This document shows, piece after piece, positions 6,851 to 58,018 of a DNA stretch of 64,000 nucleotides. Where the stretch lies: positions 248,001 to 312,000 of the forward strand of contig BCIN01000006.1 of assembly GCA_039545335.1 (NCBI GenBank), given 5' to 3'. How positions within the stretch are numbered: the stretch's first letter is position 1; each line of letters starts with the position of its first letter. The notes under the pieces were generated by a model. It had not been told where the DNA came from and made no database searches. It worked only from the letters and a program-made list of their open reading frames with translations. Source of the stretch: Kondoa subrosea (taxonomy: Eukaryota). The position numbers and the translations under genes are program-made.

Positions 6851-7188
6851 GCCTAATACACGCTAGTCTTGCTTTGTCGTTCGATTGTGTTGTGGCCTAG
6901 CGCGCTCCTCACTCTTGGACAGTGGAGCTTCTCTACTGCGCACTACAAGCTTAACGATTTGACAAGGGTCTCCTGTCGCGGGGCATCACTGATTCAATCT
7001 TCGAACATTTCATTACTTGGCTAGAAACCACCAGCAAACAAGGCTAAAGCTGAACAGATACCCTGCGCTCAATGGCGCCATAGAGAGCTGCTCCCCGATA
7101 CCTTTGCAAAAGCAGTTCAAACGGAATAGCGGCCACTTCATTGATTCTTCGCAGCTTCACCGCCAGCGGGTAGTGCTACAGTAGTGCC

Positions 7189-10100
7189 ATGACAGAAGTT
7201 CTGCAAGACTACAATGGCGGCGCTGGCTACAACGCGCATCATCAGATGCAGCCAAAACATCAAACCAGTCCTTCGTTGGCTTCGCGCTATTCTTTTATAA
7301 CAGCCCAAGAACAGCACTCAGCAGGTCTCTCGACTGGTACAGAGGCAGATGGGACAGATCAAAGCAGGCGTGAGATGGATCTGGACGATGCATCGCCTCG
7401 CAAAAACAGCTTGCTCACCGCTACCTTGGATTCACCTCAACGCCTGCAAACCGTCAACGAAGCTTCTTCTTCTGCTTCATCATCTTTAGGCGAGACAAAT
7501 TCAGCCTTGCAGCCCCTTCAGCCTTTGACAACGCGCTTTTCGAATAATGCGCTCAAAGCCAAACCTTCAAGAGCTAGTCTTCTTACTGCTACTGACTTTG
7601 ATTCAGAGTCTCCTTTACCAAGAGGAGCACCAAGCTATCCACCAGTCAGCCCTATTCCTATATCCCCATCAAGCGGGAGACAATCGCCTGCACAGATTTA
7701 CGCCAATTCTCAAGGATCACGACATCAACTACAGAACAGAGCCTCTCAGATGTCACTCAACCCTAGCTCTTCTGGTTATCCTCTACCTTCGTTTGATGCA
7801 ACCATGAATTTTGGGTCAAATTCACCTTATCCGCCGCTTCGCACACGTTCCTCTTATGCGGCACTGGAAGTCACCAATAATCTACCTATGCATCCATCAG
7901 CATTAGATACAACACCTTCTCTTTCTGCACCCTTTCCACCAGATGAACCTCAAACTCATCTACCTCGATCTATTTCTCAAACTTCTTTCTCATCCAAACA
8001 GCAACCGCCTCGTCGTTCTTCTTCTCGCCTTAACCTTGAACCAAATCTAACTCCAATAGTGACCAATTCTTTCTTCCCTTCACCAGAAGAAGCATCCACT
8101 TCTCGCTTGATGCCTTTAATGCCAGCGCAACAAGAAATATGTGTGGAATGTATGATGAGGGATAGAGATATGGTTGATGTTGATGTGACTGGTTCTGGAG
8201 TCTGGGAAAGAAGCAGTGATGCGGATTACTATGAACGCATGCAGCAAGAAGAAATGGAAGCTGAAGCTGATGAAAGAGCTGCTTTGAAGAGTAGACATAG
8301 TCATGTTAGCATCAATGGAGGTGGAACGGATGAAGGTGGCGGTAGTTTGAATGGCAGTGGAAGTGCTCATGGAAGTTTGGAGAGGAGAGAAAGGTTAGGC
8401 AGGAAACTCAAGAGATTGGGTAAAGGTCATCCTTTGACTGCTGCTTCATTGAAGTTGTGGACGAGCATGGTCAGTCGAGGTCTTTCAACCTTTGGTGAAA
8501 CAAGATCTGAAATTTCACGACCTGACAGAACATACCTGCTTCGAATCATCGTTGGCGGACTTTGCAGCAATTCATCGCAGAACAAGCTCAAATACTCGAT
8601 ATACAAAGCAATGCAAGGTTAATAGCTCAGCAAGAGCAAATGATGTCAATAGATCAATCGCCTAATTCACAAGCAAGACCGATTCCCGTGAAATCTGCTT
8701 CGTCCGATTTCGCTTCGCAACGCCAACGCGCTCATTCAACTACTGGGTCGCCGACTCGCACAAGAGACAAAGGTGATCATACAAAGAGGACAGCCGAACA
8801 GCAGTCGCGAAAGCAAAGAGCAGCACCTTTAGATATGGATTCAGCTTATCGCAGTACTCTCCTCACTCCTTCTCTTTCTGTAAACCAAATGTTGTCCGAT
8901 GGCCAATCACGACCCGATTTAGACTCCTTCAGACGCTTCTCAAGTCCAATGCCTAAGTTTGCTCCATCTTCACCTCAACAGCCGAATGGCTCTAGAAACG
9001 AATTCTCGCATAGTTCGACAGATCTACGAGGTTCTGCTTCTTCAATGTTTCCTCGCAGCGCCTCTCCGGGTCGTTCTTCAATAGCTTCACGCGAAAGACC
9101 AAAGTCTTTCTGGAGTTTAGGTCGTCGGAAAGGTAGAAACAGCAATACTGGATCCATGGTCTCGTATGCTCCATCTGGATCAATGCAAGATATGCACCTA
9201 GGCCTATTTCAAGAAAGAGAGCTGCCACCATTACCATTGGGAGCGATGGCTGCAAGCGAAATGGCAGCAGATCCTGATATACCTGACGTGAGATCTACTC
9301 TGCAGCCTGAAGACGCGCAGAAGAAGAAAAAGAAGAAGGGCTTCAAGAACTTCTTTTCCAAGCTGGTGTCTCCCAAATCAGAACATGCGGACCCAATGAG
9401 TTCTGTACCTTCTCCTACTTTCGAAGAGCCTCGCTACTATGGTCCACGGGAAGAAGATTATTACTCTGAACCTCTTCAACCGCCTGTGAGTTCCCGCTGT
9501 TTGATTTCGATTCATCACTGATTTGTGCCTCTTAGGTACCTTTCTATCTGTCCTCGCAAGCACTACGGCATGATCGATCAGCTTCTAGCTCTTCCCAGAG
9601 CTCTTCACCTCATTCGCCTCAACAGAATCGGATGTCTTTCCTTGCTTCAGCTTCGCCAGAAATGACTCGGATCAAGTCACGGGATACAGGCAACTTTCTC
9701 GACTCGCCTACACTCATCTCTCAACCGGACTTTTATGGACCCCCCAATAAGATGCCGCTCGATTTTGTTCCAGACACAAGGCAAAGTCAATCATATCCAC
9801 CTGTTCGCGAATTGCGCCGGGAGAAATCGCTACCTGCACTTCCACCAGATGCATCAGACGGGTGGAATCAAGACAACAGACGCGCTTCCACACTTCAGTC
9901 AAGCGATGAGCGCGAAGATTATGAAACGACAATTGGTGGCGGACCGAAAAGCGCTGCTGCTCGTAAGAAGACTCGGACCAAAGTTTTCAGTCTTGCATCT
10001 TTTAGAAAGTCATCGACCGTGTCAGACCATGCTGGTAATGGATCTGTCAACAGCGAGAAATTCTCGCAATATCGGTGTGTTGGCCTTTATTCGGGCAAGC

Positions 10101-10418: not shown

Positions 10419-13371
10419 TTACATTGCCTGTGGTTGGCTTTCACCCTCGAGCACACCAGAAGCACTTGAGGGTCTTCTTTCTAAGGCAGTATAAGCTGAA
10501 CCGAAACCAAACGAATTGCTTGTTCTTCTTTCGGACATGAAAGGATCTTCACCTCCATATTGAGCATTGAAAGCAAACATTGGGTTGGTAGGAGAAGTAG
10601 GTAAAGAAGAAGCAGAGAAACTAGTAGGCACCCAACTTCGATGTCGTTGATGATGGCCTTGCTGCTGTTGACCTGATCCTTCGCCTTGCATACTCATCAA
10701 CGTCTTGACACCCAAATCGCTGTGAGATCGATGATGACCGTGCGCCGAGTGCAGGAGATGGGCAGGTCGCTGCGGCGGAGCAAACGGTTGACCCTCGGCG
10801 CCAAACTCAGCACCGAGGCCAAACAAACCAGATGGAGCTTGTATAGGATCAACAAAACCGTTTGCTTGTTGCTGATCAGTATCTTCATGCAAGTATTCAG
10901 CTGGATTCTGATTGAGCATAGTAGAGAAGTCGAAATTGGGAGGTTCAGGAGGGGAAGGATAGCTGTACTGATCTGTTGTAGTAGGACCAGAATCCATAGG
11001 AGTGGGTTCGGATTCCATTTGACTAGCTTTCGTCACAGATATGGAAAGGGAAGATGCTTTGTTGGGAGCTTTGCCTTTGCCTTTCTTTGGTGCTGTCTTT
11101 TTTGGTGGTGGATCTTCGGCTGGTACAATTACTGCTCTCGAGGCGTCGGCAGCGTTTGTGAAAGTAGCGGAGTACTGTGAGCCGGATGAGTCAAGTCGCG
11201 TAAGCAATATAACATGGTGCTACTAACCTTTGCCATGATCTTCTTGACTGAATTAGCCACAATTTTCCAGGGGAAGACTTTGACATCCTTCTCAATGTTT
11301 CGAGGTTTAGGATTAGGGAAACCCATAATGAGCTTGAAGAACGGTTCAGCATCCGCTTTGGATTTCGATACTGTAATCGGTTTGAAGCCTTCCAAATTTC
11401 TTCTGATCCGATTCTTTTCTTCAACCGAGAACCTCACACCAACCATGGCTTCCAGTAGATAAATTGTATCAACAGAGGTGATAAAGCATTCATTCTTGTC
11501 ATCTCTGAAAATGCAAGAAACGACAATATCGGTAGCTTTGTAATCTTGTTGTCTGACTGGAGCAAAAGAACATTTGACGACATTGTTTTCTTGAATTCGA
11601 ATAAATTGGACCAATCTTCTTCTGGCAGTCCATTCTTCTTGAGTCCAACCACGAGCCATGTCATCTAAATCGCCTTCGAGTTGAAGTATAACTTTAGCTG
11701 CAGTAAGTCCTTTAGGTCTTCGAGCAGCAGGCGGTAGTTGAGAAGTTCGAATCAAAACCGGTTGACCTGCTTGTTCCGCAGCAGAAGGTAAAGGAGGATG
11801 TCTGAGAACGGAAGAGGTGTGAGTTCCGGCAGAAGGGTTGATAGCCATTTCCTCTTCATCTCCTCCTTCAATCGTTCCATTATTGGCGTTGTTATTGCTG
11901 CTAACATCTCTTTCGCCTTGTGGTTCGAAAACAGAGGGGACTGTTTCTCCTTGTTCTCCCAAGTGTGGAAGTGTATTAGTTTCCATATTGTCCACTAAAG
12001 CTTGATCATTTCCTTCGAGTGTCGGATCCCATTGTCCAGTTGATGGTCCAGGACTCATCATAGTAGAATCGCTCACTGTGAATCAGAATATTACCCTTAG
12101 CAAATGATACTGCTTAGGCGATTACAGCGACTCACTACCGGGAGTTGGGAACATTCCACTATCGCTTCTTCCACCGACAGACATGCTCAAATGAGGTGAA
12201 TTAGAAGCGGTCGAAGCGGTTCCGTTGAATCGAGGTGAATGAGTCAGCGCAGGTGAAAACTGTTGCTGATTACTGAAATGAGGTGAAGTATGCATTGAGG
12301 GTGAGAATTGCGTGAAATCAAAGGCTATAGGGTAGATCAAATCAATACAGAAAGCGATTGAATTGAAAAGAGATGAACTAACCTGCTCGACCTGGAGCTG
12401 GACGATCGCCATTGAGGGGTTCGCCCGATCGTTTGCGAGACATGTCTGGGGAAGGATAACCATAAGGAATTGCTGCAAACAAAAGTCAATATCAAAGACA
12501 TCTACAAGTCAATCTACGAAGAGATACTCACGTTCTACGTAATCGAAAGCACCAGCTTCAGCAGAAGCCAAGACCGTTTCATTTGCATCCACAGCTTGAA
12601 CCATCATTGCTACTCTTCCAGTTTGAAACGGACCAGGTAATCTTGGTGGGTTAGCCAACAGTTCCACTCGCTCAATAGAGGAAGATCGGTTTTCGAAAGC
12701 TACTCTTGTAGTGGCGTCAATGCTTCCAAACACTACCCGGAAAGATCTGATGGGCATAGTTGGATTAGGTTGAACGTTGATGACTACTTTGATTTGTGAA
12801 TTGGCTGCACCGAAAGTAGGAGTGACCAAAACTACTCGAACGTTTGGTAAAGAGTTGCCATTGGCTGAAGAAGAGTTATTGTTGAAAAAGGTTTGCCTGG
12901 TGGGCGAAGGAGGTTGGGACCCTTGTTGCATCTGATTGAAATCAGTGTTTGGTACTGCAGCAGGGTTGGGAGATTGATGAATAGCAGGAGAATGAGACAT
13001 GCTGAGATCGTTGCGGGCTTTGGTGCCTTCCATATTGACTGCATCGAAAGTATAATGTTGCTCTGTCGGCTGCTGCTGACGATCGTCTTGATGATCCATC
13101 ATTGAAACTGATTGCGACGGTGCAAATTGGGCCATTTGCCTCGGTACAGGAAAAGTGTTGGTTGCAGGATGTTGCGGAGATCTTCTGACTGAATTATCTA
13201 TATATCTATGATTAGACGTCGTTGGTTGTTGACAAGGCTTGCTAGAGCAGTAGTAGCTAACCAAAGTATGAATTATGTTCTGAGAAAGAACAATAGTATA
13301 TCAGTTTAATCTGCTTGAGGTTTGCTTGATTTGTACCGCTTACCAGGATGAAAGGCTTCTCCAAAAGACAT
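10419..13371 (-). CDS. medA: Medusa (MedA/ACON-3/REN1)-family transcriptional regulator with N-terminal IPT/TIG-like domain
   Basis: Core WTQEEWTARRRLVQF...ITSVDTIYLLE...FSVEEKNRIRRNLEGFKPITVSK...FFKLIMGFPNPKPRNIEKDVKVFPW; start MSFGEAFHP at 13371, followed by an 18-nt exon (13262-13279). Confidence 0.88.
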
Positions 13372-14544: not shown

Positions 14545-16732
14545 ATGAGCGGGCACTCAACAGAAGGTCAGTCTCAAAGTAAGACTGGTAACCTGTCCTT
14601 GCGGAGTCTGATTGTCGCGTTACAGATCAATCTCGGTCCGATAGGTCAGTAGCTGCCTAATAAGTCCGCTGTTCGCTGTTTTACTGATTGCTTGATCTCT
14701 CTAGGCTACATGAATATCCTTCACCTCGAGCTCAGCGCAATTTCTTTCTCCCTCCGGTGCCAATTCATCAGCCTTATAGCCATGGCTCTTTCCCTCCTCC
14801 AGCTACTCTCATGGATCGACACATGCTAAGTCGACCTCAGCAACCTTACAACAGCTATCCACTTTCCAATCAATCTCACAAAATGGGGCATCCGTCGCAG
14901 CAGCAAGCTTATTACCCTGCACCAGGCTTTACATTCTATGGTCAACGCAGTCCAGCTTTTCCTACTTATGAAGACATGAGGTCTGGTCTACCTTCACCTG
15001 CATTTACTGCTAGCCCGCAACCCTCACCACACTCGACTTATTATCCATCCCAACCATCTTCCGCTACTTCTGTTAATTCTTTACACGACAGTATGAGATC
15101 GCCCTATCCTATTCAAACAAGGGAAGAACAACATCCAATGGCATTCATGAATGCTACACCTCAATTTGATCCTCAGCCTATTCCTTCACAACAAAATAGA
15201 TCGGAATCAAGACCTGGCTCTCGTCATTCTTCTCATCACAGTAGGAGATCTTCTGTTGCTGCTGCTGCTTCACCGCAGCAAGAGTTGATCCAATCTCCTG
15301 CTCCAGCCTCGATTCCAGAACAAGCTGTACAAGAAGAAGTAGCAGAAAAAGCTGCTTCGGTCCCAGCTGAAGATCCTGGCCGTTCAACTAGTACCGTAGC
15401 TGAAGAAGTAGCAAATCAAGAACCTGTAACTGAATCGGCTTTGGTTCCAGAACCACTCTTACCAGCCTCAACGCAAGGTGACACTTCTTCGCAAGTAGGA
15501 CAAGGAGAAGGCTCTTCTTCCAATACTCGAGCACCATCGGTAGCTGCAACTACTACTTCAACAAATGATCTTGAATTACCTTTGTTTGATCAAAATCAAA
15601 CAACTCCATTCATTTCCAAGTTATTACATCTGTTGACTCATGATCGATACAATGATTACATTCGTTGGACTTCAGTTGGTGATGCTTTCATTCTGTCTCA
15701 CAGTACGTTTCATTATTCCTCTTTTTCCTTGATCAAAGGTTCAGGAGATGCCATTCGTACAGCCAATCAGTACTTTGCAAATGACATCCTTCCTCAGTTC
15801 TTCAGGCATTCAAATACTTCTTCCTTTATCCGTCAATTGAACTTGTACGGTTTCACTCGTCTCCCAATGTACGTTTTTCCCTTCTCGCTCTCGCTCTCAA
15901 CTTCTGATCAATTCTCCGATACAGTATGGAACTCTTGGAAACTCTGGATGATGGAACCAACTCGCTAGCGGGCTCAGCAGCTCCCTCTTCCTGTTTCTCT
16001 GGCTTCTCTCATCCTCAATTCAAAAGGGATGACGAAGAATTAGCTAGATTGATCAAACCTAGGCCCGGGAAAGCTAGAAACAGGTCAGTCAAAAGAACGA
16101 ACGATGGTTCTGGTGCTAGTACGAAAAAGAAAGGAGGAGGAGGAAAGAAAGTTGGTACTAGTGGAGGGGTTAAGAAGGGCGGGAAAAAAGGAAAGAAAGC
16201 GCAAAGAGATGAAGAAGATGATTATTCTGAAGAGGTGAGTCTGTTGTCACTCCTTTTTGCTTGACAAATTGCTAAGAGAAGATTGGTGACCTCACAGAAC
16301 GGTCAACATCGTCCTTTACCTCTTCCGCCTATGATTCCGCACCCAGGAATGATGCATCTTCACACACAACAAGTCCCATCACCTTCTCAAGCTTACTTCG
16401 AGCATCCGCAACCTCAGTACGAAATCACTGGTTTACCAAGAATGATTCCACAAATGGCTACTTCTCCTGGTCTGCCTCTGCCTCCACCAGAACACATGCA
16501 TCAACATCATCAAATGCAAATGCGACATTTAGTCCAACCTTATCATCAAGATTATCAACATCATCCTAGTGAAATCCAGCAAAGGATGCAAAGTCAAGAA
16601 GATCAGCACATGCGTCAGCCGGAAAGTATGCAACACCAAGGTCCATCAACTCGTTCTCGCCGACAACAAGAACAAACTTCACCTAATGAAGGATTCAGTC
16701 CAGTTCAGCAAGAACAACAGCAACAGCAGTAA
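14545..16732 (+). CDS. HSF-type DNA-binding domain transcription factor (HSF/Sfl1/Skn7-like DBD, no receiver domain seen)
   Basis: TPFISKLLHLL...IRWTSVGDAFIL...FANDILPQFFRHSNTSSFIRQLNLYGF...FSHPQFKRD; Pro/Gln-rich flanks; ATG 14545 with two short 5' exons. Confidence 0.88.
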
Positions 16733-22069: not shown

Positions 22070-22911
22070 AGTCTATCTTTCCTTGTCATGTCAATACTTC
22101 TCAAGCGTTATAATCATCAGCATCTTCTTGTGTAGCTCATCTTTTACAAGAGTCCTCGCATAGTGCATAGTGCATGTTTCACGTTAGCAATGTGTGCTTG
22201 TTGCTATGACGCCCACCGAGTTTACGCGACTAAAGCAAAAGCAATTTTATGCAGTGGAGTCCATGCCGTTTTATGAACGAAGCATGGCAGAGCATTCAAA
22301 AAAGTAACGCGGAAGAGGTGTAATAGAGGCTGACAAAGCCACTGGCATTGGGCTTTCTGCGTGAAAAATGTCTCGCAGGCTGTTTCTTACATCAGCCAGC
22401 TATAGGACGATATTAGGACTCATGAACCAGCAAAATCAGATGACAAGCAAGATGGAAAGATACAGAAGCAGTAAAGGAACACAAGTGCCAAAGTTGCGAC
22501 ATGCGACTTCACAAACAACAATCTCTGCAATAAGCATGCAACAGTACTGTATCTGAGTGCCTGCTAGTACATTCCCCTTCATCATCAAAGCTGTCAGGAC
22601 CAAGATAACCTCTGTAAATGCGGGCTCTGAGCTCAGGGAAAATCTGTGGCGTTTGGGCATTTGACGATGCCGGCCAGCATGAGTGTACGAGCTTTGAGGC
22701 GTCCTTCTGTCGTTCGGTCACCACCTCGCTTGTTCTTCCTCCCTTCCTCTTCGGCCTGTTGCGATCAGAACTTGGGCATTCGTCATACGCTTCTGCTCTT
22801 GTGCTTGTTTATTGCATTCGAGTGTTGACCACTTGAAACCCCTGGCACTTCTGTTAGTCATCTTCCCATTGATACAACCATTCCTTTCCTAACGCGTGTT
22901 TCTAGTCAATC

Positions 22912-24781
22912 ATGAGCTACACTTCAATGTCCCCATCTGCTTCAGATCCTTTCCTCGACACGAAGCCTTTGGCGAAAGCTCTGCCACCTACTTTGGCTCA
23001 TCTGATGAATGAAGCAGCTCCAGCAGGCAAAGAAGCTCAAGTTCAGCCCAAGCTCACCCGAACTCAGAACTTGTTCACGGCCAAACGTCTTTCGGTTATC
23101 CCTGCTTCTTCTGCTCCAATCTCGATGCAGAACTATCGAATGAGCGCGCCTTCGACTCCGCCACCTGGCTCTTGGACACCTAGTTCACCTACTCTGAGCG
23201 CGAATGGTTTGCCAACCCCTGGAGGAAGTACCATTTACCAAAGTAACGATATCACTATTCGTCGACCTCAGATTCCTTCTTCTCCCTTGTGCCGACCAAA
23301 TCGACCATCGAACCTTTCTTTGCAGAAGACCCCTCTGAGCAATAGCACGTTGTCTACCAGCACTAATTCCGTGGAAGAGAACACTGGCTTTCCCTTTCCT
23401 ATTCTCACGCCTCCTCTCACTCCATCGCACGAGTCTTCATCTCCCACAGACGCTCGATCACCGTGTGAAGTTCGAACTCCTGGCGATGTCGAAGATGGTC
23501 CTTCAGCTATCTTGATTCGATCCGATTCTCCAGATCAATATGATGAAGACGAACCAGAGCAACAAGAAGCTAAGGATGATCATCACGATACAGAGTCGAC
23601 TGTGTCTGCTCGCTATCTCTCTCAGTACGCCTTACATCCTCACTTCAATTCTCAGTATGTCATGAGTGATGAACTTGGTTCTGGTGGATTTGGATTTGTG
23701 GTGAAAGCTACAAGGGTGAAGGATGGGCAAATGGTGGCGGTCAAGTTCATCTTTAAAGACCGAGTTCCCTCGCATGGCTGGATCCGCAAGAGGTTTCCTG
23801 ATGGTCGTGGTGGTCTCATCACGGAAGTGATTCCAACTGAAGTCTACACTCTGCAACGTATCCGTCATCCTGGCGTCGTTGCTTTCATTGATTTGTTCGA
23901 AGATGCCACTTTCTTCTATCTGGCAAGTCCTCTACATTCTTCATCTTTTGGTGTGCGCTAATCTTGAGATAGGTCATGGAACATCATGGATCGACCTGGT
24001 CTTCTAGTAATCCAAAAGAGCAAGTTCAAAAGACTTCCCCAATGTCTCTACCAGCGTTGCAGAAGGCAGCAATCCGAGATTTGCCTCCATCTCCAGTATC
24101 GCCTACTACTTTTGGTCAACAACATGCCACAAGAACTTTATCGGCTCCTACCCCGCCTCCTTTCTTGCGAAGATCATCTTGCGATTTGTTCGAATGCATC
24201 GAACAACATTCCAAGCTTTCTGAAGATCAAGCTCGATACGTGTTTGCGCAGATCGTCACTGTGGTTTATTATCTTCACGTCAATGGTATCTGCCATCGTG
24301 ATATCAAGGACGAGAATATTGTTATTGATGATAAGCTAAAGGTGAATTGCCATGCATTTGTCGTTGCCAGTGTCTTTGGCTAAAGTGTGCTCAGGTCAAA
24401 TTGATCGATTTTGGGTCTGCTGTTTTGTTCAATCCTCGCCAGCAATTGCCAACTTATGATAAATTTTACGGCACCATCATCTTTGCGAGTCCTGAAATTC
24501 TTTCTGGTTGCGCTTACCTGGCACCACCGGCTGAAGTTTGGTCGCTTGGTATTCTCTTCTCTGTTCTTCTTTGTGGCGAAAGCATCTTCCGCGACAGCTA
24601 TCACGTCCTTGAAGGCAAGATCCATCAAGGCATGTTTGATCGACTTTCCCGACCCTGTCAAGAGATCTTGGGACTCTGCTTGCATCCCGATCCACTACGA
24701 AGAGCTACTGTCGCCGATTTGCGCAAACACCCTTGGCTAAGAAATACCATTGCCGATCTTGAACGTGGCATCACTCGATGA
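22912..24781 (+). CDS. Ser/Thr protein kinase, CAMK group, PASK/PIM-like
   Basis: LGSGGFGFV, VAVKFIFK, CDLFECIE, HRDIKDENIV, DFGSA, FYGT..FASPEIL; Ser/Pro-rich N-terminus; GC-AG intron 23923-23972. Confidence 0.92.
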
Positions 24782-32775: not shown

Positions 32776-33835
32776 TCAAGCGTGCCTCGCACAAGAACCC
32801 GAGCAGCATGGACCACATCGAAAATTCTCGCAAGCCAAAGCACGCGCACTACCGCAGCCAACGCAACCTCGAGAATCCAAAGTGGTGCCACGTGCAAGTG
32901 CTTTCCTGGTCAATTCTTCCAATGAGATCGGTACAGGCCAAACTTCCAAAGTTTGCTCAATGATAGATTGCGAAGCTATTCTTTGCTGATCAGCTCTTGC
33001 AATAGCCTGCACTCTCGCCTGCTCGGCCTGTTCCGCTGCTCGACGTTGATGCTCGAGAAAAATTTCAGCAGCCTTTTCATCCGCTTTCTCTTTTGCAGTA
33101 ACAGCACGAGAAGTAGCAGCCAAGAAATCAGTCATATCCTTCGCTTTTCCTCTAATCAAAACCTCCCGCCAAGTCAAACCATCTTTACTTCTTTGTCCAC
33201 CAGGAATCGAATCAAGTTTATCGAAAGCCATATCCAAATGAGCATGCCTTTTCTTAGCCTCGAACGCATTTCTAACTGTTTCTTCCATCTCTTGCATCAC
33301 GATATGAAAACGAACGAATTCCACGACGGCATTTGGATCAATAGGTAAAGGTTGAACGATAAAAGAATGATGTTTGGTAGCCAGCAGAGTGTCACTTTCA
33401 GATTTGGCGTCATCAAGAGCAACTTGTAGATCTGATTGATTACCAGTGAATTCGCTAGCCATTGCAGCTTCTTTCAGATTGACTTGATTAGCCCATGCTT
33501 GTGCTTTAGCTAATGCAGCTTGGCAATTTGTAGGGACCCGATCCAACGTTGATGTTGTAGCACTGCTCAAAGAATAAGCACAGCCGCAGACAACGCTTTC
33601 GACGCTAACTTGAATGAGTAAATACTCCTGTCTATCCATTCGACTGCAACAAAGCATCAGTCCATCACGCAAACACGTAGCAAGCAGTTACTCACGAATT
33701 CAGCTCCGAAAGCTGGGACTTGATGCCTACAAGCTCGACCCGGATATTTGCAAGACCATCTTTCAGTAGGTCGCTTAGACTTGGTTCTTCCACGGGCACT
33801 GGACGGCGTCCTTCCTCACTGGATCGAACAGACAT
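32776..33835 (-). CDS. Orphan helical protein with C-terminal Cys-rich zinc finger (CX2CX7CX4CX2CCX3CX2H)
   Basis: 298-aa ORF 32776-33672 plus upstream exon MSVRSSEEGRR...ELNS with a gtgagt donor; ends CVGCGSARALACENFRCGPCCSGSCARHA*. The 5' end is uncertain. Confidence 0.7.
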
Positions 33836-34882
33836 AGTTTCCTCAATACGGTAGACTGAGACAGCTCCAGGCAGAAATGAATGCAAGTATCTGCAATAAG
33901 GCCTGGGTCTCGAAGTACTCTGGGCAGGTGTTGACGGTTTGCGGACAAGACTGCACAATACTTTGTCTCAGGCAGCGAGGTGTGGATCTTGATGTGTACT
34001 CTCGATACGATTCAGCAACATCAGGTCTGCTAATCAGGTCTACCTCTTCGCGATCTTTGCCTCGAAACTTGCTCAGCGACTCAGTCAAATGAAGTCTAAC
34101 TTGCTTAGAGCGCAATCTCGCATGGCAGACTTGCAAGTACAACAGCCATCCTTGACGGATACGTACCTTGGGTCTTCTGCCTTCCTGCTGTACCAAGCTT
34201 TCTGCGATTCCATGCCTTGCGGATTCCATGCCTTTTTCGGTCCAAGATGTTACAACTTGACTCGCTGCTTCTCCGATTGCTGCTTTGGTATTAGCGACCT
34301 CCCTGCAGTCGCAGATATTCCTGGTGGATCACTCACTGCATTCGCTCCTTCTAGCATCTTGAAAATACTAGGCTTGGTTCCGCGAACTTGCGATATGAAC
34401 ACCGATTTTGTCGCGTAATTTACACCTATACTACGTGTGTCACGTCTGCAATACGAATGTGCGAAAGTCTGATGGAGAGCTAATAGATATACACATCACG
34501 CGCACGCACTCGGTCCAAATCATCAATCAGGCGGGAACGAAGACTTTCCTGATCCAGTAAGTCCAGAACCTTAGCTTTGTTTTCTGATCAACAAAGGCGT
34601 AGGTGAAAACTCGCTACACATCTCCTTCCTCTTCTTCTTCTCGCAACCATGCTGTACTCTCTTTCTTTAAACAACGTGAGCGTTCTCCAGCCGCTGAAGA
34701 AGACTATCAGACGCGTAGCTCGCTCTTTGGACTACTCTATATCTGCGACTCGGAACGGTTGGAGACTTAAGCATTGGTCTCTGAACGTATTGATCGTTAG
34801 AACATCTCGACAAACAGATCAGAAGTCTGCAAGCTGTACCAACCAGTAAGGAGTGCGAAAACAGCAGACTTTGGTCCGATTA

Positions 34883-35104
34883 GCTGTAATGGCGAAAGGA
34901 CAAGACTTGCTGGGGTAGTCAGAGGCTAGGCGGCTTTCAGACTTCTGTCTGATTTCGTGCTGAAACCGGACCCATCGACTCGCGAGGCTGGCGTGCAGTT
35001 TGAGTTAACAGTGCTAGATTTGGTCACCGTTGTTGGCTGGTTTGATCACAGGGGAAGAAACATTGAGCGGTTATTGGTCATGACAGTCTTTTTCGGTCGC
35101 TTTT
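34883..35104 (+). ncRNA. Candidate signal recognition particle (SRP/7SL-like) RNA with atypical S domain
   Basis: Starts GCTGTAATGGC (fungal SRP Alu motif); long-range pairing AAGACT 34902-07/AGTCTT 35085-90, GGTAGTC 34914-20/GGTTATT 35069-75, AAACCGG 34963-69/CTGGTTT 35037-43; ends CGGTCGC followed by T tracts. Confidence 0.6.
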
Positions 35105-35120
35105 CTACTCTTTTTTTCTT
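35101..35120 (+). terminator. T-tract, possible RNA polymerase III terminator of the SRP-like RNA
   Basis: TTTTCTACTCTTTTTTTCTT immediately after the 3' strand of the predicted helix; it could also serve as an intron pyrimidine tract. Confidence 0.4.
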
Positions 35121-35613
35121 TATTCTCTCAACCAAAGAAGCTAACGCTTGTTGTATGCAGGTCAATTGCCGCAAACTGCCAGCGTATTCGTTGTGTTGAA
35201 GTGCTTTGCCGTATTTGTGGTTAGAGCGACATGACCATGTGACAATGAATTGTAACTTTGACTTGTGATTCGGCAGTTCCTAGTCTACATCGTTCATCCT
35301 CTCGTTTTAGCATATCCTCGTTGTCTACTCTTATAATCTTAGCTAGGGTTTCCCTTACTGCGAAGATCGATCCGGGTCATACAAACCGTCTAAACGTCTG
35401 CTGCGAATGCGACGAGACAGTTACTATTCTCCGCATTAGAATTGATGACTAGTGCTCGTCATAATCGACTTACTTGTCGTGCGGCTCGGCAGCAGAACAT
35501 CGTCTTTCGTCTTTAGCCAGATGTTTCAAAATTTGATTTACGAGACTATGTACAAGGACGTATGAGCTTGTAATCAGGTCAGAGGCTGCCAGAGATCAAC
35601 TCACCTCTCCGAA

Positions 35614-36567
35614 TTAATCGATCTGAGTAGCTGTCGCCGCACTCGGTCTTCTTGCTCTGCTAAGGATTGCTCGGCATTCCCTCGCTATCTCACCAACACC
35701 TTTGACTCCAGCTTCTTCCCATGCTCGAAGGATTGGCTGGAAGTAAGAATAAGCAAGACGCTATCTAATTCAAACCAAGGACTGACTTCTCTACTCCCCC
35801 AAAGCGAATGTGCTTCGTTTCGATCTTTGTCTACTAGCAGTCTAAGTTGCATAGGAAGATCGAGCAAACGGGGAAGATGGACGAGTGGATCAAAGATATC
35901 GCTGTCCGACTTTGGTACTTCAGAGATAGTGGAGCGAGAAAAAGAAGCAGTGACTTGAGATATGAATTCGAAGGAAGAGCGAAGAGCGTCAAGAGAAGCA
36001 TCGAGTGATTCCGATCGCTCTTGCATCTATTCACTATCAGCTGAAGCTATATTTAATGGAAAGAGAGCGACTCACTCGCTGTATTGTATCGCTTGCTGCA
36101 ATCAACTCGTGATGATGATTATAGACTAATGCTTGACGTTCAGACTCAAGATCCTTGATCTCTTCACGCGTGTCTTGCTCTTTCTTCAGCAGATCGGCGA
36201 CGGAAGCAGTATTGTAGAGATGATCGAATAGCTCTTTCGGGTCAGGTAGAGTAGCGGTATCTGATATGAGCGGAAGAGCAGACATCAGTCAGTCGCGTTC
36301 AGCCAGAGTATGTGCGGCGACGTACCACCTTGAGCTTCCTGTTTCGAAGTTGAAGTGTCGTTCAAGCCATAGTAGTCACGCAAGTTGGTTCTCGCCCTTC
36401 TTTTCGCCTAGGCATACGATTCAATTGATAACGAGATATCGAGCAGCAGGACTTACAGCAGCTCGTTCCAAGACTTGAGCTGAAGCTGTCCTGTTCAAGC
36501 GAGGTGCTAAGGTCGACCTAGAACTAGCGCTTGAAGCTGCTGAAGACCGCCTGTCCAGCGGGGTCAT
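35614..36567 (-). CDS. VPS51: GARP/EARP complex subunit Vps51
   Basis: RARTNLRDYYGL, LLKKEQDTREEIKDLESERQALVYNHHHELIAASDTI, LRAWEEAGVKGV. Confidence 0.87.
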
Positions 36568-36933: not shown

Positions 36934-39533
36934 TCAAACCATTTCGACATCTCCCTCCTCTTCTTCTTTACTAGGCAGCTCTCGCAAGATCGATCCCCAT
37001 TTAGGGAAGACTCGCTTGTACAAATTGAGGCAAACGGTATCCATCTGATCCATAGGTCCATCGAAACCAGCTTTGAAGTAACCATGCGTCCCAAGAGATT
37101 CTTTAATATGACCCGTTCGACCTTTCTTGGTCTTTAGCTGAATAGGCTTAAAGTAGTCAATATCTTCCGAATTGAAGAACATGTAGCGAATAGTAGCTGT
37201 TCGTTTGTGCAGCTTGAAAGGATGACCAGTCAGGATAATCCGCTTGGCAAGCACTCGAGTTGGGTCTGAAGACATCATTGTGCCGCTACCAATGAGTTCA
37301 TGCGAATCGGGCTTGATAAGAAGAGCAGGTACATTGGTACCAAATGTGATGGGAAGATAGCAGGTTGCAACGATAGAGGAAGTAGCTGCTGCTGGTCTGA
37401 AGTAGCGAAGGAACTTGTGTACGTTGTTGGCGCCCTTGCCATGATTACTTTGCGCATGTGAGGAGAAGAGAGGATTGATTGCGAATCGTCTTGGTCCAAG
37501 CAGGAGAATGGCATCATCCTGATATGTGTATTGAGCATTGGCTGCAGATCTGGAGGCGGGAGACTTACCTTTGATCTGATCTCTTCTTCAAACTCTGTAT
37601 TCCTTTGCAAGCTAAAATGCATGACAGTGTATTTGTGTTCGTGCTTATGCAGAGCGTAAACCACAACAGAGTGGGTTTGACTTGATAATTGAGCTGCTGC
37701 TGCTTTCGGAACATCTTTGATGTATATTGTCACTCGTGTACCAGGCTGTAAGCAAGAAAAGAAGTATCTATCAGGTTTCAATCTGAAATGTACTCAATAC
37801 TGCTTACCTCAACACCATCTTCTTGCGCCCTTTTGGTCACTCTCCGAGACATACCCTTCCAATTCTCAAACATGAAGCATCTAGCATAATCTCTTGGCAG
37901 TTGCTCATACGGATCCCAAGGACTCGTTCTAAAACTCTTCAAGCCTCTAAATCTTGCAAATCTTTCTCTAGCAGGCATGTCTTGAGGGGTATCAACTTCA
38001 TCAGGGAAATCCGCATCATCCCTTGACTCAAGTGCTCTTTTCGCTTGGTAGGCAGTATATTCAGCTTGTTCTGCTTCCGGATCTAATTCATGATGCGGTG
38101 CTGTTGATTCAGTATCGACTGCAAAAGAAACAGCTCGAGTAGATTCTTTCATTTCATCGTCTTCCTCTATTTGCTGAATTGGTTCTTCTTCCTCTTCTTC
38201 TTCTGCCACATCTTCTTCTTCTCCGTCATCTTCATCCATAATCCATGCTGCTTGATAATTTGATGTACCTTGAGGTACTTTCTTGAGCCTTTTAGGTGTT
38301 GTTCCAGGTAAAGCGGAAGGAATGACCAAATGATCCGATGAATTGTAACCCGGAGCGGAAGCGATGTCATCTTCAGTAGGCCAAGTTTGTTCAGCTAGCA
38401 AAGCGTCTTCATCGTCCGGTACATTGGTTGATTGTAAATCGTCTATATCATCTTCTGTTGGTTCAGCTATAAGATTAGAAGTAGGTTCAGTTTCCATTTC
38501 GTTCGCTTTTGGTCTTTTGGAAGTAGAAGCAACAGGGGCAGCTTCAATCCGGGAGATTTGGAAATCTCCAAGCCCTTGTAGATGTACCAATCGATCAGCA
38601 GAAAGACAAGCGCCTCGAACGTAGCCAGTAATTTTGAGTGTAGCTTTCTCTTCCTCTGGAGGCGATTCTCCCCACTCTATTTGCTCAGCCAAGATTCTTG
38701 CTCGTTCTTCCCTCCATCCTACACCTCTCGGCACACTTTCACTCATGCTTCTTGTCAAATTCGATAATTCGCTTGAAACGTCCAAAGAGTAAATTCGAGT
38801 GATTTGAGGGAAGAAATGCTGAGAGAAAGATAAGAGTGATTTTCGAATAGCTGTATGAATTGAATGTGATTCGTTTGAAGGTAAAGAAGTGACCAAAGCT
38901 CGAACTCCAGATTCAGGTATACCTAAAGCTGTAATGCATCGAAGCATATTTTCTCCCCATGCATTGACTTCTGTTGTTGAAGAGAGACAGAGTATGACAT
39001 AGTCTGCAGACATGATTGCGTCGACGTTGGCTAAAAGATCGCCATGGAGTGGTGTAAGGTATTGAAAGCTGGTTGATTTGGATCCCTTTGTGCTGCAAGA
39101 GTACGATCAGCGAAGAAGCAGACAATGAGGAAGGATGTACTAACCTTGATTGGTATATAGAACCTAGGCGTTGAGCTGTTTCTTCATCTTCTTCAGATAT
39201 CAAAGAAGCTAAGACTTGCTGAGAATCCACATCATCACACAAGCACAGTAGAGCGACGACCCTAGGCGCTCTTTTCTCTCCAGCATGACCAGATAAGACT
39301 TTGGCAGAAGCCACTAATGCAGCTCGTTTCTGCAATTGGACTTGTTTCGCTGTGTTTCTTCGGGCAGCTTTAGTCTGCTGTGACGTCTTTAGATGTGTTC
39401 TTTCTTCCTTGACGGGCCGTTGAGTCCTCCCCTTTGCTGCATCCTTTAGAGATTTCTTGCTGCTGTGTCCACCACTTTTTTTGAAAGTCTTGTTTGTCTG
39501 CTTAATTGTAGGTCTGTGATGGTGGGACTCCAT
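36934..39533 (-). CDS. TSR1: 40S ribosome biogenesis factor Tsr1
   Basis: HHHRPTIKQTNKTFK, VPQGTSNYQAAWI, FPDEVDTP..PARERFARFRGLKSFRTSPWDP, KRIILTGHPFK..GHIKESLGTHGYFKA. Confidence 0.96.
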
Positions 39534-51892: not shown

Positions 51893-52447
51893 GATCTACA
51901 AAGCTAGCAATGCTGGTGCAGATGCGGAAATCAAGGATTAGACGGCGAAGTGATAGAGTCGACGAAGACCGGCGATGGAAGTCAGTATGCGACAAACTTG
52001 AAAGGACCTAAAGGTAGTTGCGTAAAGGAAGAAGTTCCCAGAATTGGCTTGCTATACGCTTGTACTTGCTGTGCAGTACGTCGAGATGATGACTTCTGTA
52101 CTCTCTATCCGTATGGGCGATACCTCGACACGTCGACGACAAAGTAAGGCGGATGAAATTGGGCGAAGGGAAGAGTGGCTGCAAGAGAAGCACGACTGAA
52201 GTGATAACAGGGGAGACACAGAGCAGGCTTTCAGTAGTAAGCTGAGTGAGCAATGGTTGAGGACAAAGGAGTAGCTCTCGTTGTTGTCGAGACGATCTTT
52301 CTTACATGCAAGCGGCCACTCAGGCTTGACACCACAGCAAGGCAACGTGTCTATTACCAGCATCTTGCCCTATATACCTGCTGCTGGTATTGCCAAACGA
52401 TTCCCCTCGCTTTGCCCGACTCCTGCTTCTATTGATAGAGAATCAAT

Positions 52448-55103
52448 ATGGCTCGTCCTCTGTCGCCTCTGAGCAGCAAGAGCCCTCTGGCTGACTCTGT
52501 AACCTCATTCGAGACTGCTACAAACGAACCAGAAACTGCAGCTTTACCTGAATTGCACGCTGCAGCTCAAAAGGGAGATACGCAAGCAATACAAGATCTT
52601 CTCAAATCAGGTTCAGCGGATGCAAATGATCGAGATGCTCAAGGGATCACTGCTTTACATTGGGCAGCAATCAATAATCGATTAATGGCGTGCAAAGATC
52701 TCTTACAACATGGTGCGGAAGTAGACGCTATAGGTGGTGAATTGCAAGCTACACCAATGCAATGGGCAGCAAGAAATGGTCATCTTTACATTGTTCACTT
52801 ACTCATTTCACACGGTGCCGATCCTGCTTTGACCGACGCTCAAGGTTTCGATACTTTACATTTAGCGATTCATTCTTCTTCTCCTATGCTTATTACCTAC
52901 CTTCTTTCACAACAATTACCAGTAGCAACAGATGCGGTAGATCGAGCTGGAAGAACTTGCTTGCAATGGGCTGCTTATCAAGGGGATGGGATTTCGGTCG
53001 ATTTGATGCTCAAATATGGCGCAGATCCAAACAAGAAAGATCCTGGTGGTCTTACAGCTTTGCATGTAAGTATCTATTTTGCGGAGAATTCAAGCTGCGC
53101 GCTGATGTTTGGGATAGTGGGCAGTAGTGAAAGGCAATGTGAATTGTATAGCAAAGATCATGGAAGCTGGAGCAGATCCATCGCAGAAGAATGCTGAATC
53201 ACAAACACCTTTTGAACTAGCTAGGCAACTCAATTCAGTTTCTGCTTGGCAGAGAGCCATGGCTTCAATCGGAAGAGAACCAGATGGAAGAGTCAAACAT
53301 CGTCCGTTGAATGACAAGAATACCCAATGGGCTATCATGACTTTACCTACTGTGATGCTCTATGCTGGATTCAAGACTTTTGCCATCTTACCTTGGTATA
53401 CTGCTATACCTGTCGTCTGTTAGTCTATACGTTTCCTTGTGTTCGAAGAGATGCTAAACTCTTTTTATAGGCGCTGAATGGTTTGGCTTACATCATGTGG
53501 TCGTCAAAGTTCTACTGGATAGTAAAGGATCAGATGATAAAATCAGCAAGAGTCCATATCTAGCTGGAGTATTGGCAGCTAGTATCATATGGGCTGGATG
53601 GACATGGTTGACCACTCTAGTATCAGGTAAATATCCCTCTTCATCATTAGGTAATCAAGTTCTGATATCCAATCAAGGCACTTCGGGCTATGCTACTACA
53701 AACTTGGTTTTCGCTATCTCTTATCTCGTTTGCGCCTATAATTTCGTCAGAGCAATGACTTTGGATCCTGGTCATGTACCAAAATTGCAGAGCGAGACGC
53801 AAACGAAAGAGGTGCGTTGTGATACTATTGTGATGGTATTCCATCTCAGCAGTTTCGTCGGGTACAGGTGGTCGAGGAATTGGTCATTGCTGGCTCCTTC
53901 ACTGGAGCCGATTTCTGTCTACCTTGCATGGTGAGCAGCTCTACGTGAGAAATTGTACTTCAGCTGATGCCCAGTAGGCTAGGAAACCTTTGCGCTCGAA
54001 ACATTGCCGCATCTGCAACCGATGTATTGCCAGACATGATCAGTGAGTTCTCGGCTGTCCAGAATTGATCATATGCTGATTAAGATTCTATAGTCATTGC
54101 GTAGGCAGCTTGACTCGGAAAGACTAATGGAAACTGACTAGAACATGACAGCCCTGGATCTGGAATTGCGTTGGCGTCAACAACCACCGCCAATTCATTC
54201 TCTTTGTTGTCATGCTTATCATTGGCATTGTTTCATTTGATCGACTTGCATATGCTTGTAATTTCTCTATTCTGTTTTTGTCATAACGTGCTAATCAAAA
54301 CCAGATTTCTACCAACATACACCTTCACCTTCACCTTCAGATACCCCAGCATCAATAGAAGACGATTCCATGTGCCTATTTCCTCGTGTGATATGTCAAG
54401 CAGCTCAATTCGATACCTTCACCTTCGTCGTTGCCCTCTGGTCCACCTTACAACTAAGCTGGACTCTAATCGTCTTGGCTGGACAAGCTTTCCAAATCAC
54501 ACGACAACTTACAACGTACGAACTGTCAAATCTAGGCAGACATGGGTATATGCAAGGCAAGAGTGGTCAAAGTTTATCACCTCAAACAAATCATCCTGCC
54601 GTACAAAGATTATCTGCTATGGCTCAAGAACAAGGTCTACCTCCTCCTGGTACAAGACAATGCAATAATCATGCTCCTGGTCATAAACATTCTTCTTTCC
54701 TGACAAAGATCTTACCTGCCGGACTTCTATCTGTTCTCGGATTGGACTTGTATACCAAGGGCAAAGCAGTAGATGGTATCACTGTAAGTCGATTGTTACA
54801 ACCATATATCTGCGCTAATGGTCTGTTGCAGGTTGCGAGCAGTAACGAAGGGAAGAAGAAGAACCCTTTCGATATGGGTATTTGGGCCAATTGCTCTGAT
54901 TTCTGGACCAGAGGAAGAACATTAGGTGTAGATTATACCACTGTGAATATCTTCTCCTCCTCCGTACATTCGCGCTTGCTAAAGTTTTGATTCAGTTGTA
55001 TGCGATACCTGAAGAAGGCTTCTCACAGAATTCCGTCAAAAGGCGGCGGAATGAGAAGAGAGGAAGCACAGCATATGAGATGCTACATTCTGAAGATGTA
55101 TGA
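52448..55103 (+). CDS. AKR1: Ankyrin-repeat DHHC palmitoyltransferase Akr1
   Basis: Several ankyrin repeats ([22 protein letters not shown]), TM helices, [45 protein letters not shown]. Confidence 0.95.
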
Positions 55104-55302: not shown

Positions 55303-58018
55303 ATGACCTGCTCCATCTGTCTAGTGCATTCAGATTCTGCATCTATTTCTTGCAACAGCTGCAGACGCAGCGTACATCTGGATTGCTTCGCGCTGCCTTC
55401 AACTTTAGAGACTTGGACATGTCCTGAATGCTCGCATGGTGTAGCGAATGAGCTAGTTCGTAGTGTCTTCTTCTCGCATCAGTAGTATGCTCATGTTTGT
55501 GTTAGCATTGTGAAGTGTGTACAGTGAGGGAGAAGCAGCACTTGCGTCTGCCTTCGAGGGAGAGTGGACCAAAGAGCAGCATCAAATGGGCTCATATGCT
55601 ATGTGAGAATATGCAGCTTTTGGACCGTATGCTTTGACCAAGACGAAAGACACAGGCGTCCTGTACTCGTCTGCTCTAGGGATTAATCATAGTACCGGAC
55701 GATCATTTATAGGACTGGAAAGTGAGCTATACTAAACATTGACGTGCTCTCATGCTGAATCATTGCATGTAGAAGTGAATCCTTCGCTGAGAAAATTACG
55801 ATGTTCAGTCTGCAATACGTGTAAGGGCATCTGTAAGCGAATCCGCTGCTACTCTTCCTCAAGCTCACACATTCTGAAAGGTACACAATGTACTTATGCG
55901 AACTGCCGCAAGCCCTTCCATCCGTTGTGCTGCTACACTCATGGCGGAGGATTTGATCAAACGGGTCAGAAAATCAAGAACGGGCAAGTTGTTCTTTCTA
56001 CCAAATGCCCAAAGCACAATTCTCGTTCAGTGAGTATGCAAGCATCTGTTACATGCGATTAAATTGATCCTTTTACACAGGTGAAGATCGTTCAAATCGA
56101 AAAAGACCCTGCTGTTCAAATACCGCCTGGCTGGCGCGGCTGGGTCGATGATACTAGACAAGACTCACCGATCTTACCAGAAGACTATGGAAAAGATTTA
56201 GATCACACGCACTTCAAAGATCTAGAAATAGCAAATTGGGTCAACTTGAATCCAGATAAAGCAAGACCATCAAGCGTATCCTGTAAGAAATGTTTCGAAG
56301 AACTCCTTATCGATGCAGACTGTCTCGATCTCGATGTCAGCAAGGGCTCAAAGCTTCTATGGAAGCTCATCAAAGATTCCGATCATCATTGGTCCAGCTG
56401 TGAGGCAACTCGTCTTAATCCATACTCTAATGTAGAACAATGGATACATGATTACAAATCTGTGTTTCGCAAGCCGCCTCAGAATGACTATCTTTCCAGA
56501 CTTAAAACATTAGAAGAGGATCTGATACGCTGTGAAGAGAGAAGAGACCATCTGATTGTGTTGGAACGGAGTGCATTGGAAGAACATGGCGAAGCTTCTG
56601 AAGAAGTCAAGCGGCTGTCACGAGAACTCAATACTGCCTTAACGAATGTCAACAGAGCACGCAAACGAATACCTATGCATCGCAGGCCTATCGAGAGGCC
56701 AGTACAAATGGTTCAATCGAAGAAGAAACGCAAGAGCAGTTCAGCTCAAAAAACTCAAGTTACTGTTCCAAATGCTGACGAGAGCGATATCACGCCGCAT
56801 CCGTCTCCTGCACAGCTCTCTTACTTTTCTCCGCCTCTATATCGCTGGACCACTCAGTCCACTGAACGTAGCCCGCCTCCTCTTTCTCCGGCAAACGCAG
56901 CAATGAAAGAAACTGTTCGACCCCAATCTCCCGTGCCTTCGCTATTCCAGAACAGTGCTACTCAAAATCAGAGTTTTGAACTTCCAACTCCAGCGCCGCA
57001 TTCGTCGAGCTCCAGCAGAACAAATGCTTCTGCTTCCTCTGATGCTCGACGACCATCAGCGGCCAACCTTTCCGACAAGCATTCTTCCGCTGAAGTGACA
57101 CCTTTCGGGCAAGGGCAAAGAGAGAAAAGAAAGAGAGAGGAATCCCTTGACCAGCAGAAGAAGCAGAAGAAAGCGAAGCTTGAGACAGCAAAAGAGCAAA
57201 AGAAAGATCTCAACCCGGCCTTCTTCCGCGCAAGTGATGGCGCTGCGCCTGAGATCAATCCTTCAGCTGCAAGATCTCCAGACAATACTTTTGCTCGATC
57301 ACCTTCTTTGAAGCATCATTCCTCCATTACGACACCGCCTGCGCGGCTTTCTTCCTCTTCTCCTTCCTCTGCATTTACTAGGCAATCTGAAAGTCCTAAT
57401 CGCTGTCGACAACGTTCTGAGTCGCTGGAATTCATCTCTTACAACCCGAAATCATCGCAAGCAACAGCGAAACCTTGCGAACCATTCATACATCCATCGA
57501 GCGCAAGCCAAGCATCAGAGCCCTTAGAAGATCCTGTTCCGGCTATATTAGAACCACTGCCTCAACAGAAGACTGTCGAACTTCTGCTGACCGCAACTGA
57601 AAACAAAATCTCAATAGCAACAGCCAGAGCTTTTGCTCTTCACCTCTATGCACTTGGTCTCCAAGACCCAGTAGACTTTAGCTACTTCACTTCTAAGTCG
57701 TGGAAATCCTTCATCGAGAATTTTCCGTTCCCTAAACCAGCTGGCAAACCGCTCGAGCATATACGTGCGAATCGAGCTATTGGAACATATGTCGACACAC
57801 TGTCTGTGAGCAAAATCGAAGGACTTTCCACTCAGCAAGAACAGCTTTCTAATGTTCTGAACGACTTATCGCCTGGTTTGGGTTGGTCAAAAGAAGTGTT
57901 GCAATGTCTGTGGGTTTCATTCATGTTTTACGTACCTGTGTAGATGCTGACGAGTATGATAAGATCTGATATGGGCTTCTCCTCAGCAAATGATCTGCGC
58001 GAGTCTAAAGATAAATAG
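55303..58018 (+). CDS. PHD + extended-PHD (PZP-like) chromatin reader-like protein; possible extension to 58111
   Basis: CSIC..CNSC...VHLDC..WTCPEC (PHD); CEVC..WAHMLC; CSVC..GI..QC...CRKPFHPLC...CPKH (ePHD); long exon 56081-57909; last exon hits TAG at 58016. Confidence 0.8.

Follow-up and report, generated by a model that had tools for sequence, protein, structure and literature searches.

Within the window, the stretch of 64,000 nucleotides analysed here, a locus of ~211 nt is probably the gene for the organism's SRP RNA. The S domain of this RNA would be unusually reduced, and the gene would be of the noncanonical kind that has been published for basidiomycetes (Dumesic et al. 2015, Nucleic Acids Res 43:9017, PMC4605306). 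The locus would encode the SRP (7SL-type) RNA of a Pucciniomycotina fungus, transcribed by RNA polymerase III from ~34882/34883 to a run of five T's at 35089-35093, which would give an RNA of ~211 nt. In this RNA, a 5' hairpin with UGUAAU and the helix adjoining it would make up an Alu domain of the Dikarya type, with helices 3 and 4 missing, and be followed by a long imperfect helix 5 with one small, helix-10-like side hairpin and a very small S domain at its end.

The exact fungal SRP 5' motif GCUGUAAUGGC (DNA GCTGTAATGGC) is present at 34883-34893 as the sole exact copy in the window, where an exact 11-mer is expected 0.03 times (128,000 / 4^11, equal base frequencies assumed). These 11 nucleotides are identical to consensus positions 3-13 of the Rfam Fungi_SRP model and, as far as published primers give it, to the start of S. 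cerevisiae scR1, which reads AGGCTGTAATGGC. When up to one mismatch to the 11-mer was allowed, three sites were found in the window versus 0.81 expected, and three sites were reached in 4 of 100 shuffles. Directly after the motif, with no gap, follows the 5' strand of an 8-bp terminal helix, and the T5 run closes this helix at 211 nt. The features at the two ends of the candidate are the following.

34883-34893, plus strand: helix 2, the 5' Alu-domain hairpin GCU-GUAAU-GGC with the UGUNR motif (UGUAA), in the minimum-energy fold of 34883-35093
34894-34901, plus strand: 5' strand of terminal helix 5, GAAAGGAC, which pairs with 35086-35093 (GUCUUUUU) in 8 consecutive pairs
35065-35093, plus strand: 3' strand of helix 5, in both its proximal and its terminal part, from the end of the Rfam alignment and the minimum-energy folds
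35089-35093, plus strand: T5 run, read from the sequence
35101-35104 and 35111-35117, plus strand: further T runs (T4 and T7), read from the sequence

An earlier note on this DNA, made from its letters alone, had listed the 5' motif, the side hairpin, GAGG, TGCA, an ACA triplet and T runs, and each of these elements was observed directly at the position it had given. The extent of ~222 nt that it had proposed needs a correction at the 3' end, which is better set at the first T run, 35093 (~211 nt), because only then do the 5' hairpin and the adjoining 8-bp helix enter the minimum-energy fold; the Rfam alignment stops there, too. The fold ending at 35093 is the textbook Dikarya Alu fold, a GCU/GGC hairpin and then 8 bp. 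Pol III transcription probably terminates at the T5 run, where the RNA would have its 3' end, and the T4 and T7 runs are possible back-up terminators, a function that their sequence suggests. Both the ends of the RNA and its transcription are what we infer here. Within the candidate, GGTTTGATCAC at 35040-35050 (plus strand) agrees at 7 of 9 specified positions with the tRNA-type Pol III B-box consensus GGTTCGANNCC, and TGGCGAAAGG at 34890-34899 (plus strand) resembles an A box. No TATA-like element was visible around position -30. SRP RNAs typically have poly-U at the 3' end (Dumesic et al. 2015, PMC4605306).

Could these signals have come together by chance, as an intergenic 11-mer, accidentally complementary to a T-rich stretch nearby, from which no stable RNA is made? 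By arithmetic with equal base frequencies, a genome of ~19 Mb should contain ~9 exact 11-mers, and the locus was singled out from many windows by the same motif, both of which speak for a chance resemblance. The rarity of the terminal arm was measured directly in the window. An 8-bp arm right after an 11-nt site, with a T4 end 150-350 nt downstream, was present at 157 of the 128,000 positions in the window, and the same arm with a T5 end at 19 of 42,400 sampled window positions; overall, the strict criteria gave a frequency of 0.045-0.13%. Under progressively looser criteria the frequency was 0.9%, 3.2% and 4.8%, and a comparable arm at 3-5% of positions again speaks for a chance resemblance. 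The two motif copies with one mismatch fail the strict criteria for the arm and pass the looser ones only. Taken jointly, the 11-mer and the strict arm are expected ~0.004-0.01 times per genome. This figure becomes lower still with the GAGG/UGCA loop motif, since a helix-8-type motif (two outer pairs, N-AGG, an inner pair, N-GCA) occurred 13 times in 128 kb, the candidate counted, which corresponds to a chance of ~1% per 100-nt stretch, and the side hairpin at its expected place lowers the odds further. The criteria for rarity were set after the sequence had been seen, so the true odds are weaker than these numbers. Even allowing for that, chance is not the best explanation, and we regard it as unlikely.

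Rfam covariance models had no match in the whole window at gathering thresholds. At E up to 10, a search with 1,001 bases gave two matches, both irrelevant lncRNA fragments, and Fungi_SRP was absent. A search with 256 bases, for which the filters are laxer, gave Fungi_SRP (RF01502) with 15.1 bits and E 0.1, below the gathering score of 65, as the sole match from the SRP clan. The alignment, obtained directly from the model and weak, extends from end to end (model positions 1-293, window 34881-35093). Only the 5' hairpin, the adjoining terminal helix and the final U's are aligned with high posterior probability; for the blocks of helix 6 (45 model positions) and helix 8 (47 model positions), there is essentially no alignment. 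When the S domain alone (98 bases) was searched against Rfam, no match was obtained, to an SRP model or otherwise. By scaling, ~2 matches of 15 bits are expected per 19-Mb genome, and a score so far under the gathering score favors the chance explanation. The Fungi_SRP score is not an independent proof because it comes mostly from the motif that first drew attention to the locus. The exact 5' motif, the rare terminal helix with its T run, the end-to-end Fungi_SRP alignment, weak as it is, and GAGG/UGCA support the designation "SRP-like RNA" that the locus had been given from its sequence. That it had also been called strongly reduced fits with ~211 nt versus 280 nt in Cryptococcus neoformans and 293 model positions, and with an S domain unmatched by SRP models.

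The predicted fold of the candidate is no more stable than that of shuffled sequence. For the 222-nt extent, the minimum free energy was -63.9 kcal/mol and the shuffles averaged -68.1 (z = +0.89), with 169 of the 200 at least as stable; for the 211-nt extent, z was +1.21 and 179 of 200 shuffles were at least as stable. The E. coli 4.5S RNA, included as a positive control, had a z of -3.15 (2 of 200 shuffles at least as stable). A free energy no better than that of shuffles is in line with a chance resemblance. By their pair probabilities, the side hairpin (0.97) and AAACCGG/CUGGUUU (0.92) stand out as robust, with 0.35-0.72 for the remainder of the fold; pairing between the 5' and 3' halves over long range is also predicted. 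Helix 5 is made up of the following elements.

34918-34936, plus strand: 5' strand of proximal helix 5 (GUCA, GGCUAG, GC, GCUU), predicted to pair with 35065-35084 in the minimum-energy fold
34937-34952, plus strand: side hairpin UCAGAC-UUCU-GUCUGA in the 5' strand of helix 5
34957-34979, plus strand: 5' strand of distal helix 5 (GUG.U.AAACCGG, CCA.CGAC), which pairs with 35029-35049
35050-35064, plus strand: unpaired purine-rich stretch AGGGGAAGAAACAUU, 15 nt, opposite the side hairpin in the minimum-energy folds

Proximal helix 5 has mean pair probabilities of 0.47-0.53 and many G-U pairs in the predicted fold. The side hairpin is located where the fungal model carries a small 18-nt branch (helix 10-like). 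In distal helix 5, the 3' strand GGCUGGUUUGAUCA / GGCUGGUUUGAUCAC is aligned to GGCggaCgGGAUuaCAC of the model with low posterior probability. Distal helix 5 lacks the asymmetric 3-nt loop known as the 5e motif, and GUG.U.AAACCGG / CUGGUUU.A.CAC has two 1x1 mismatches instead; the 5e loop is known to vary among fungi (Dumesic et al. 2015, PMC4605306). The loop UUCU of the side hairpin (34943-34946) is complementary to AGAA (35056-35059) in the opposite purine stretch, and the two could form a 4-bp pseudoknot or could be complementary by chance.

The earlier note had drawn a 5' hairpin, a rod, a side hairpin and two distal hairpins. The first three were recovered, with the side hairpin at a pair probability of 0.97, but the two distal hairpins did not emerge as the best fold: the two-hairpin apex is suboptimal, with -13.5 kcal/mol versus -14.8 kcal/mol for a single unbranched rod (34972-35036). 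The two hairpins are as follows.

34978-35005, plus strand: distal hairpin A, with GAGG (34984-34987) opposite UGCA (34994-34997), for which a helix-8-type symmetric loop is possible
35009-35029, plus strand: distal hairpin B (GUG-CUA-GAUU-UGG-U-CAC), in suboptimal folds only

In its SRP54-type fold, hairpin A rises from the base stem ACUC/GAGU through a UU bulge, confined to the 3' strand, and then a G-U and a C-G pair to the symmetric loop GAGG/UGCA with the pairs A-C, G-G and G-U, above which there are a single C-G pair and a UGGC loop. This fold has -3.0 to +0.1 kcal/mol and is thus 4-7 kcal/mol worse than a plain stem-loop (stem GGCUG/CAGUU, loop GCGUG) with -7.1 kcal/mol, as calculated with a nearest-neighbour energy model that credits no non-canonical pairs. 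Compared with the bacterial consensus CAGG-gCc-GGAA-gGc-AGCA, six of eight loop letters agree (AGG and GCA match), and a stub replaces the 3-bp stem and the GNRA loop of the consensus. Hairpin B has no internal loop of the AGG/GCA type and no helix-8 features in its sequence. By position, hairpin A is in the place of helix 6 and hairpin B in that of helix 8; by motif, hairpin A is the candidate for helix 8. Which of the two plays which role, and what proteins they bind, we infer from these elements: hairpin A would present the M domain of Srp54 with the non-canonical A-C and G-G pairs of the symmetric loop in helix 8, and its asymmetric loop, with the shorter strand on the 5' side, would be of the "truncation" type reported for Mixia osmundae and Rhodotorula glutinis by Dumesic et al.

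Other assignments of the branches were considered. Hairpin B was discarded as helix 8 because no register gives an A-C/G-G loop plus a paired apical stem. An arrangement with the side hairpin as helix 6 and everything distal to it as a long helix 8 is unlikely, since GGCUGGUUUGAUCA aligns, if weakly, to the distal helix 5 of the model; moreover, a hairpin of 6 bp is too short for a helix 6 that reaches the apex.

It had been stated before that neither distal hairpin has a GNRA loop, and this was borne out on reading the sequence, which has no hairpin loop of the form GNRA or GNAR. Of the GNRA/GNAR tetramers in 34883-35093, inspected by eye, none closes a stem of more than 2 bp, and the candidate apical loops are UGGC or GCGUG for hairpin A and GAUU for hairpin B. 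The RNA would be devoid of the GNRA/GNAR apical loops that normally clamp helices 6 and 8 together.

The ACA triplet at 35083-35085, 3 nt ahead of the T5 run, had led to the suggestion that the locus might encode another small RNA, e.g., an H/ACA snoRNA. However, no ANANNA hinge was seen by eye in 35050-35070, only ~20 nt are left for a 3' hairpin, and apart from the lncRNA fragments mentioned above, neither a snoRNA nor any other family of Rfam was matched at E up to 10. In the absence of an H box and with too little space for the 3' hairpin, the H/ACA snoRNA was rejected, and a small RNA of this or another kind is very improbable.

A further explanation has to be weighed against an SRP RNA gene. 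The locus may be an SRP-derived paralogue or a decaying duplicate that kept the Alu-type ends, lost a working S domain and has a new role or none, with a more canonical SRP RNA gene elsewhere. An S domain matched by no SRP model, the missing GNRA/GNAR loops, a length ~70 nt below that of the C. neoformans RNA and a fold without excess stability would all fit such a paralogue. Fungi usually have one SRP RNA gene. When the region 34600-35400 was compared with two DNA runs of ~18.8 million letters each (one sample, possibly the source of the window), each run had one contig with at least 80% likeness, and this contig had no differences from the window. Therefore, there is no close paralogue and no repeat family; a diverged second gene may exist. 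That no second copy at >=80% likeness was found in ~18.8 Mb of contigs, from which a diverged copy could escape, argues against the paralogue, as do the intact terminal helix and terminators; furthermore, standard models are known to miss SRP RNAs of basidiomycetes. We consider a paralogue or duplicate to be an improbable reading of the locus and keep to an SRP RNA gene as the probable one.

Relatives of the candidate were sought as well. A metagenome scan for the 5' motif followed, after a gap of 75-105, by GAGGCNNNNGTGCAG gave four loci, all of them chance matches in GC-rich coding-like or repeat sequence without SRP features. Thus, the scans for relatives found no homologue to show covariation, which is a point in favor of a chance resemblance. 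The first 19 nt of the candidate had no match in prokaryote genome contigs, a long shot for fungal contamination. Among the papers covered by a literature search, none other than Dumesic et al. 2015 dealt with Pucciniomycotina SRP RNA.

The candidate is intergenic, with a Vps51-like gene on one side and a minus-strand gene below ~34400 on the other. Four ORFs overlap the candidate, and none of the four matched a Pfam family. The genes and coding pieces recognised in the window are the following.

11132-12082, minus strand: coding piece with DUF7082 (E 1.6e-68)
14688-15965, plus strand: coding piece with a recognisable HSF-type DNA-binding domain
22906-23958, plus strand: coding piece with a recognisable protein kinase N-lobe
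below ~34400, minus strand: a further gene, from exon translations
~35614-36407, minus strand: Vps51-like gene (Vps51/Exo84/COG1 N-terminal domain, small; PF08700, E 9e-15)
36934-39106, minus strand: multi-exon Tsr1 gene (40S ribosome biogenesis) with Tsr1_G-like, AARP2CN and RIBIOP_C domains
52439-53194, plus strand: recognisable coding piece of an ankyrin-repeat protein

The Vps51-like gene converges on the candidate RNA gene, with ~500 nt between its 3' end and the T runs. The Tsr1 domains are distributed across at least three reading-frame pieces. Two long ORFs, 3921-5738 and 56063-57943, are low-complexity or coiled-coil-like, and Pfam had no match for the long ORFs 7174-8619, 8526-9518, 32779-33687 and 62050-63441. 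Upstream of the candidate, at 34616-34641, there is a CT/GA-rich stretch of ~21-24 nt that is found at two further places on the source contig and looks like a simple low-complexity repeat.

The Tsr1 gene was used to place the host. The best database match of a Tsr1 fragment was Mixia osmundae, with 51% identity and E 2.1e-130, followed by Phenoliferia and other Microbotryomycetes and then by Agaricomycetes. This order of matches gives a direct taxonomic placement: the host therefore belongs to the Pucciniomycotina, and a close sequenced relative is absent from that database. Since even the best relative of its Tsr1 is only 51% identical, the host is a deep-branching Pucciniomycotina lineage. 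The Protein Atlas was uninformative on taxonomy and gave the generic Tsr1 family only.

The SRP RNA's helix 8 and its tetraloop rank with the best-conserved RNA elements in life. The one large group known to depart from the rules for them is the basidiomycetes (Dumesic et al. 2015, PMC4605306). If the locus encodes a working SRP RNA, the known variation would be extended to the loss of both apical loops together with a very short S domain, and nature would have provided a test of how far Srp19 and Srp54 depend on the helix 6-helix 8 scaffold. A more far-reaching version, which we put forward tentatively and with considerable doubt, is that the only SRP of this lineage uses an RNA of ~211 nt that has lost both apical tetraloops, GNAR of helix 6 and GNRA of helix 8, and presents the Srp54-binding symmetric loop on a stub capped by 1-2 bp, with a second hairpin 3' of it. 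If this were true, the SRP19-stabilised adenosine clamp between helix 6 and helix 8, said to be conserved throughout the eukaryotes and archaea, would be lost; the S domain would be the most reduced one known in a free-living eukaryote; and matching changes would be predicted in Srp19/Sec65 and in the M domain of Srp54. The locus would also be a practical example of how current Rfam models miss SRP RNA genes in Pucciniomycotina, so that annotations of genomes there will be without an essential gene. Should it turn out to be a chance match or a dead copy, the locus would have no significance beyond itself.

How does the candidate compare with known SRP RNAs? The SRP of C. neoformans has been purified and contains a 280-nt RNA with a purine 5' end, a poly-U 3' end and a small helix 10, which standard searches had missed. 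In addition, 152 basidiomycete SRP RNAs without helices 3, 4 and 9 were predicted; their helix 8 extends from canonical forms through to forms with one or two inserted hairpins, and the A-C pair is kept in 152 of 152. The published SRP RNAs of Pucciniomycotina escape standard models, have an altered helix 8 and take noncanonical forms, and a "truncation" type of the helix-8 5' strand was reported for Mixia osmundae and Rhodotorula glutinis (Dumesic et al. 2015, PMC4605306). For basidiomycetes, SRP RNAs of a noncanonical kind were thus already on record, among them truncated helix-8 loops in Pucciniomycotina, which tempers the novelty that the earlier note had seen in the locus.

The candidate resembles the noncanonical basidiomycete SRP RNAs in an Alu domain without helices 3 and 4, in UGUNR, in a small helix-10-like branch, in a helix-8 A-C pair and adjacent G that may be retained, in being missed by standard models and in the subphylum of the host. 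It differs from the C. neoformans RNA in its length (~211 nt versus 280 nt, i.e., ~70 nt shorter). Unlike the noncanonical basidiomycete RNAs that the paper describes, it has a helix-8-like apical stem of only 1-2 bp with a UGGC loop and no recognisable GNAR loop of helix 6, and its helix-8-like hairpin comes first; the published Pucciniomycotina RNAs may share these traits. With the ascomycete-type Fungi_SRP model RF01502 (e.g., S. cerevisiae scR1), the candidate shares the GCUGUAAUGGC hairpin, the adjoining terminal helix 5, the 3' U run and the position of the 18-nt branch, whereas its 15.1 bits are far from the gathering score of 65 and it is ~80 positions shorter than the model with 293. 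The bacterial 4.5S RNA (RF00169), a minimal helix-8 SRP RNA, carries a GGAA tetraloop on a 3-bp stem above the symmetric loop, where the candidate has 1-2 bp and UGGC; it is also very stable (z -3.15), and the S domain of the candidate gives no match to RF00169. What the candidate has in common with the bacterial 4.5S RNA are the letters of the symmetric loop, AGG and GCA.
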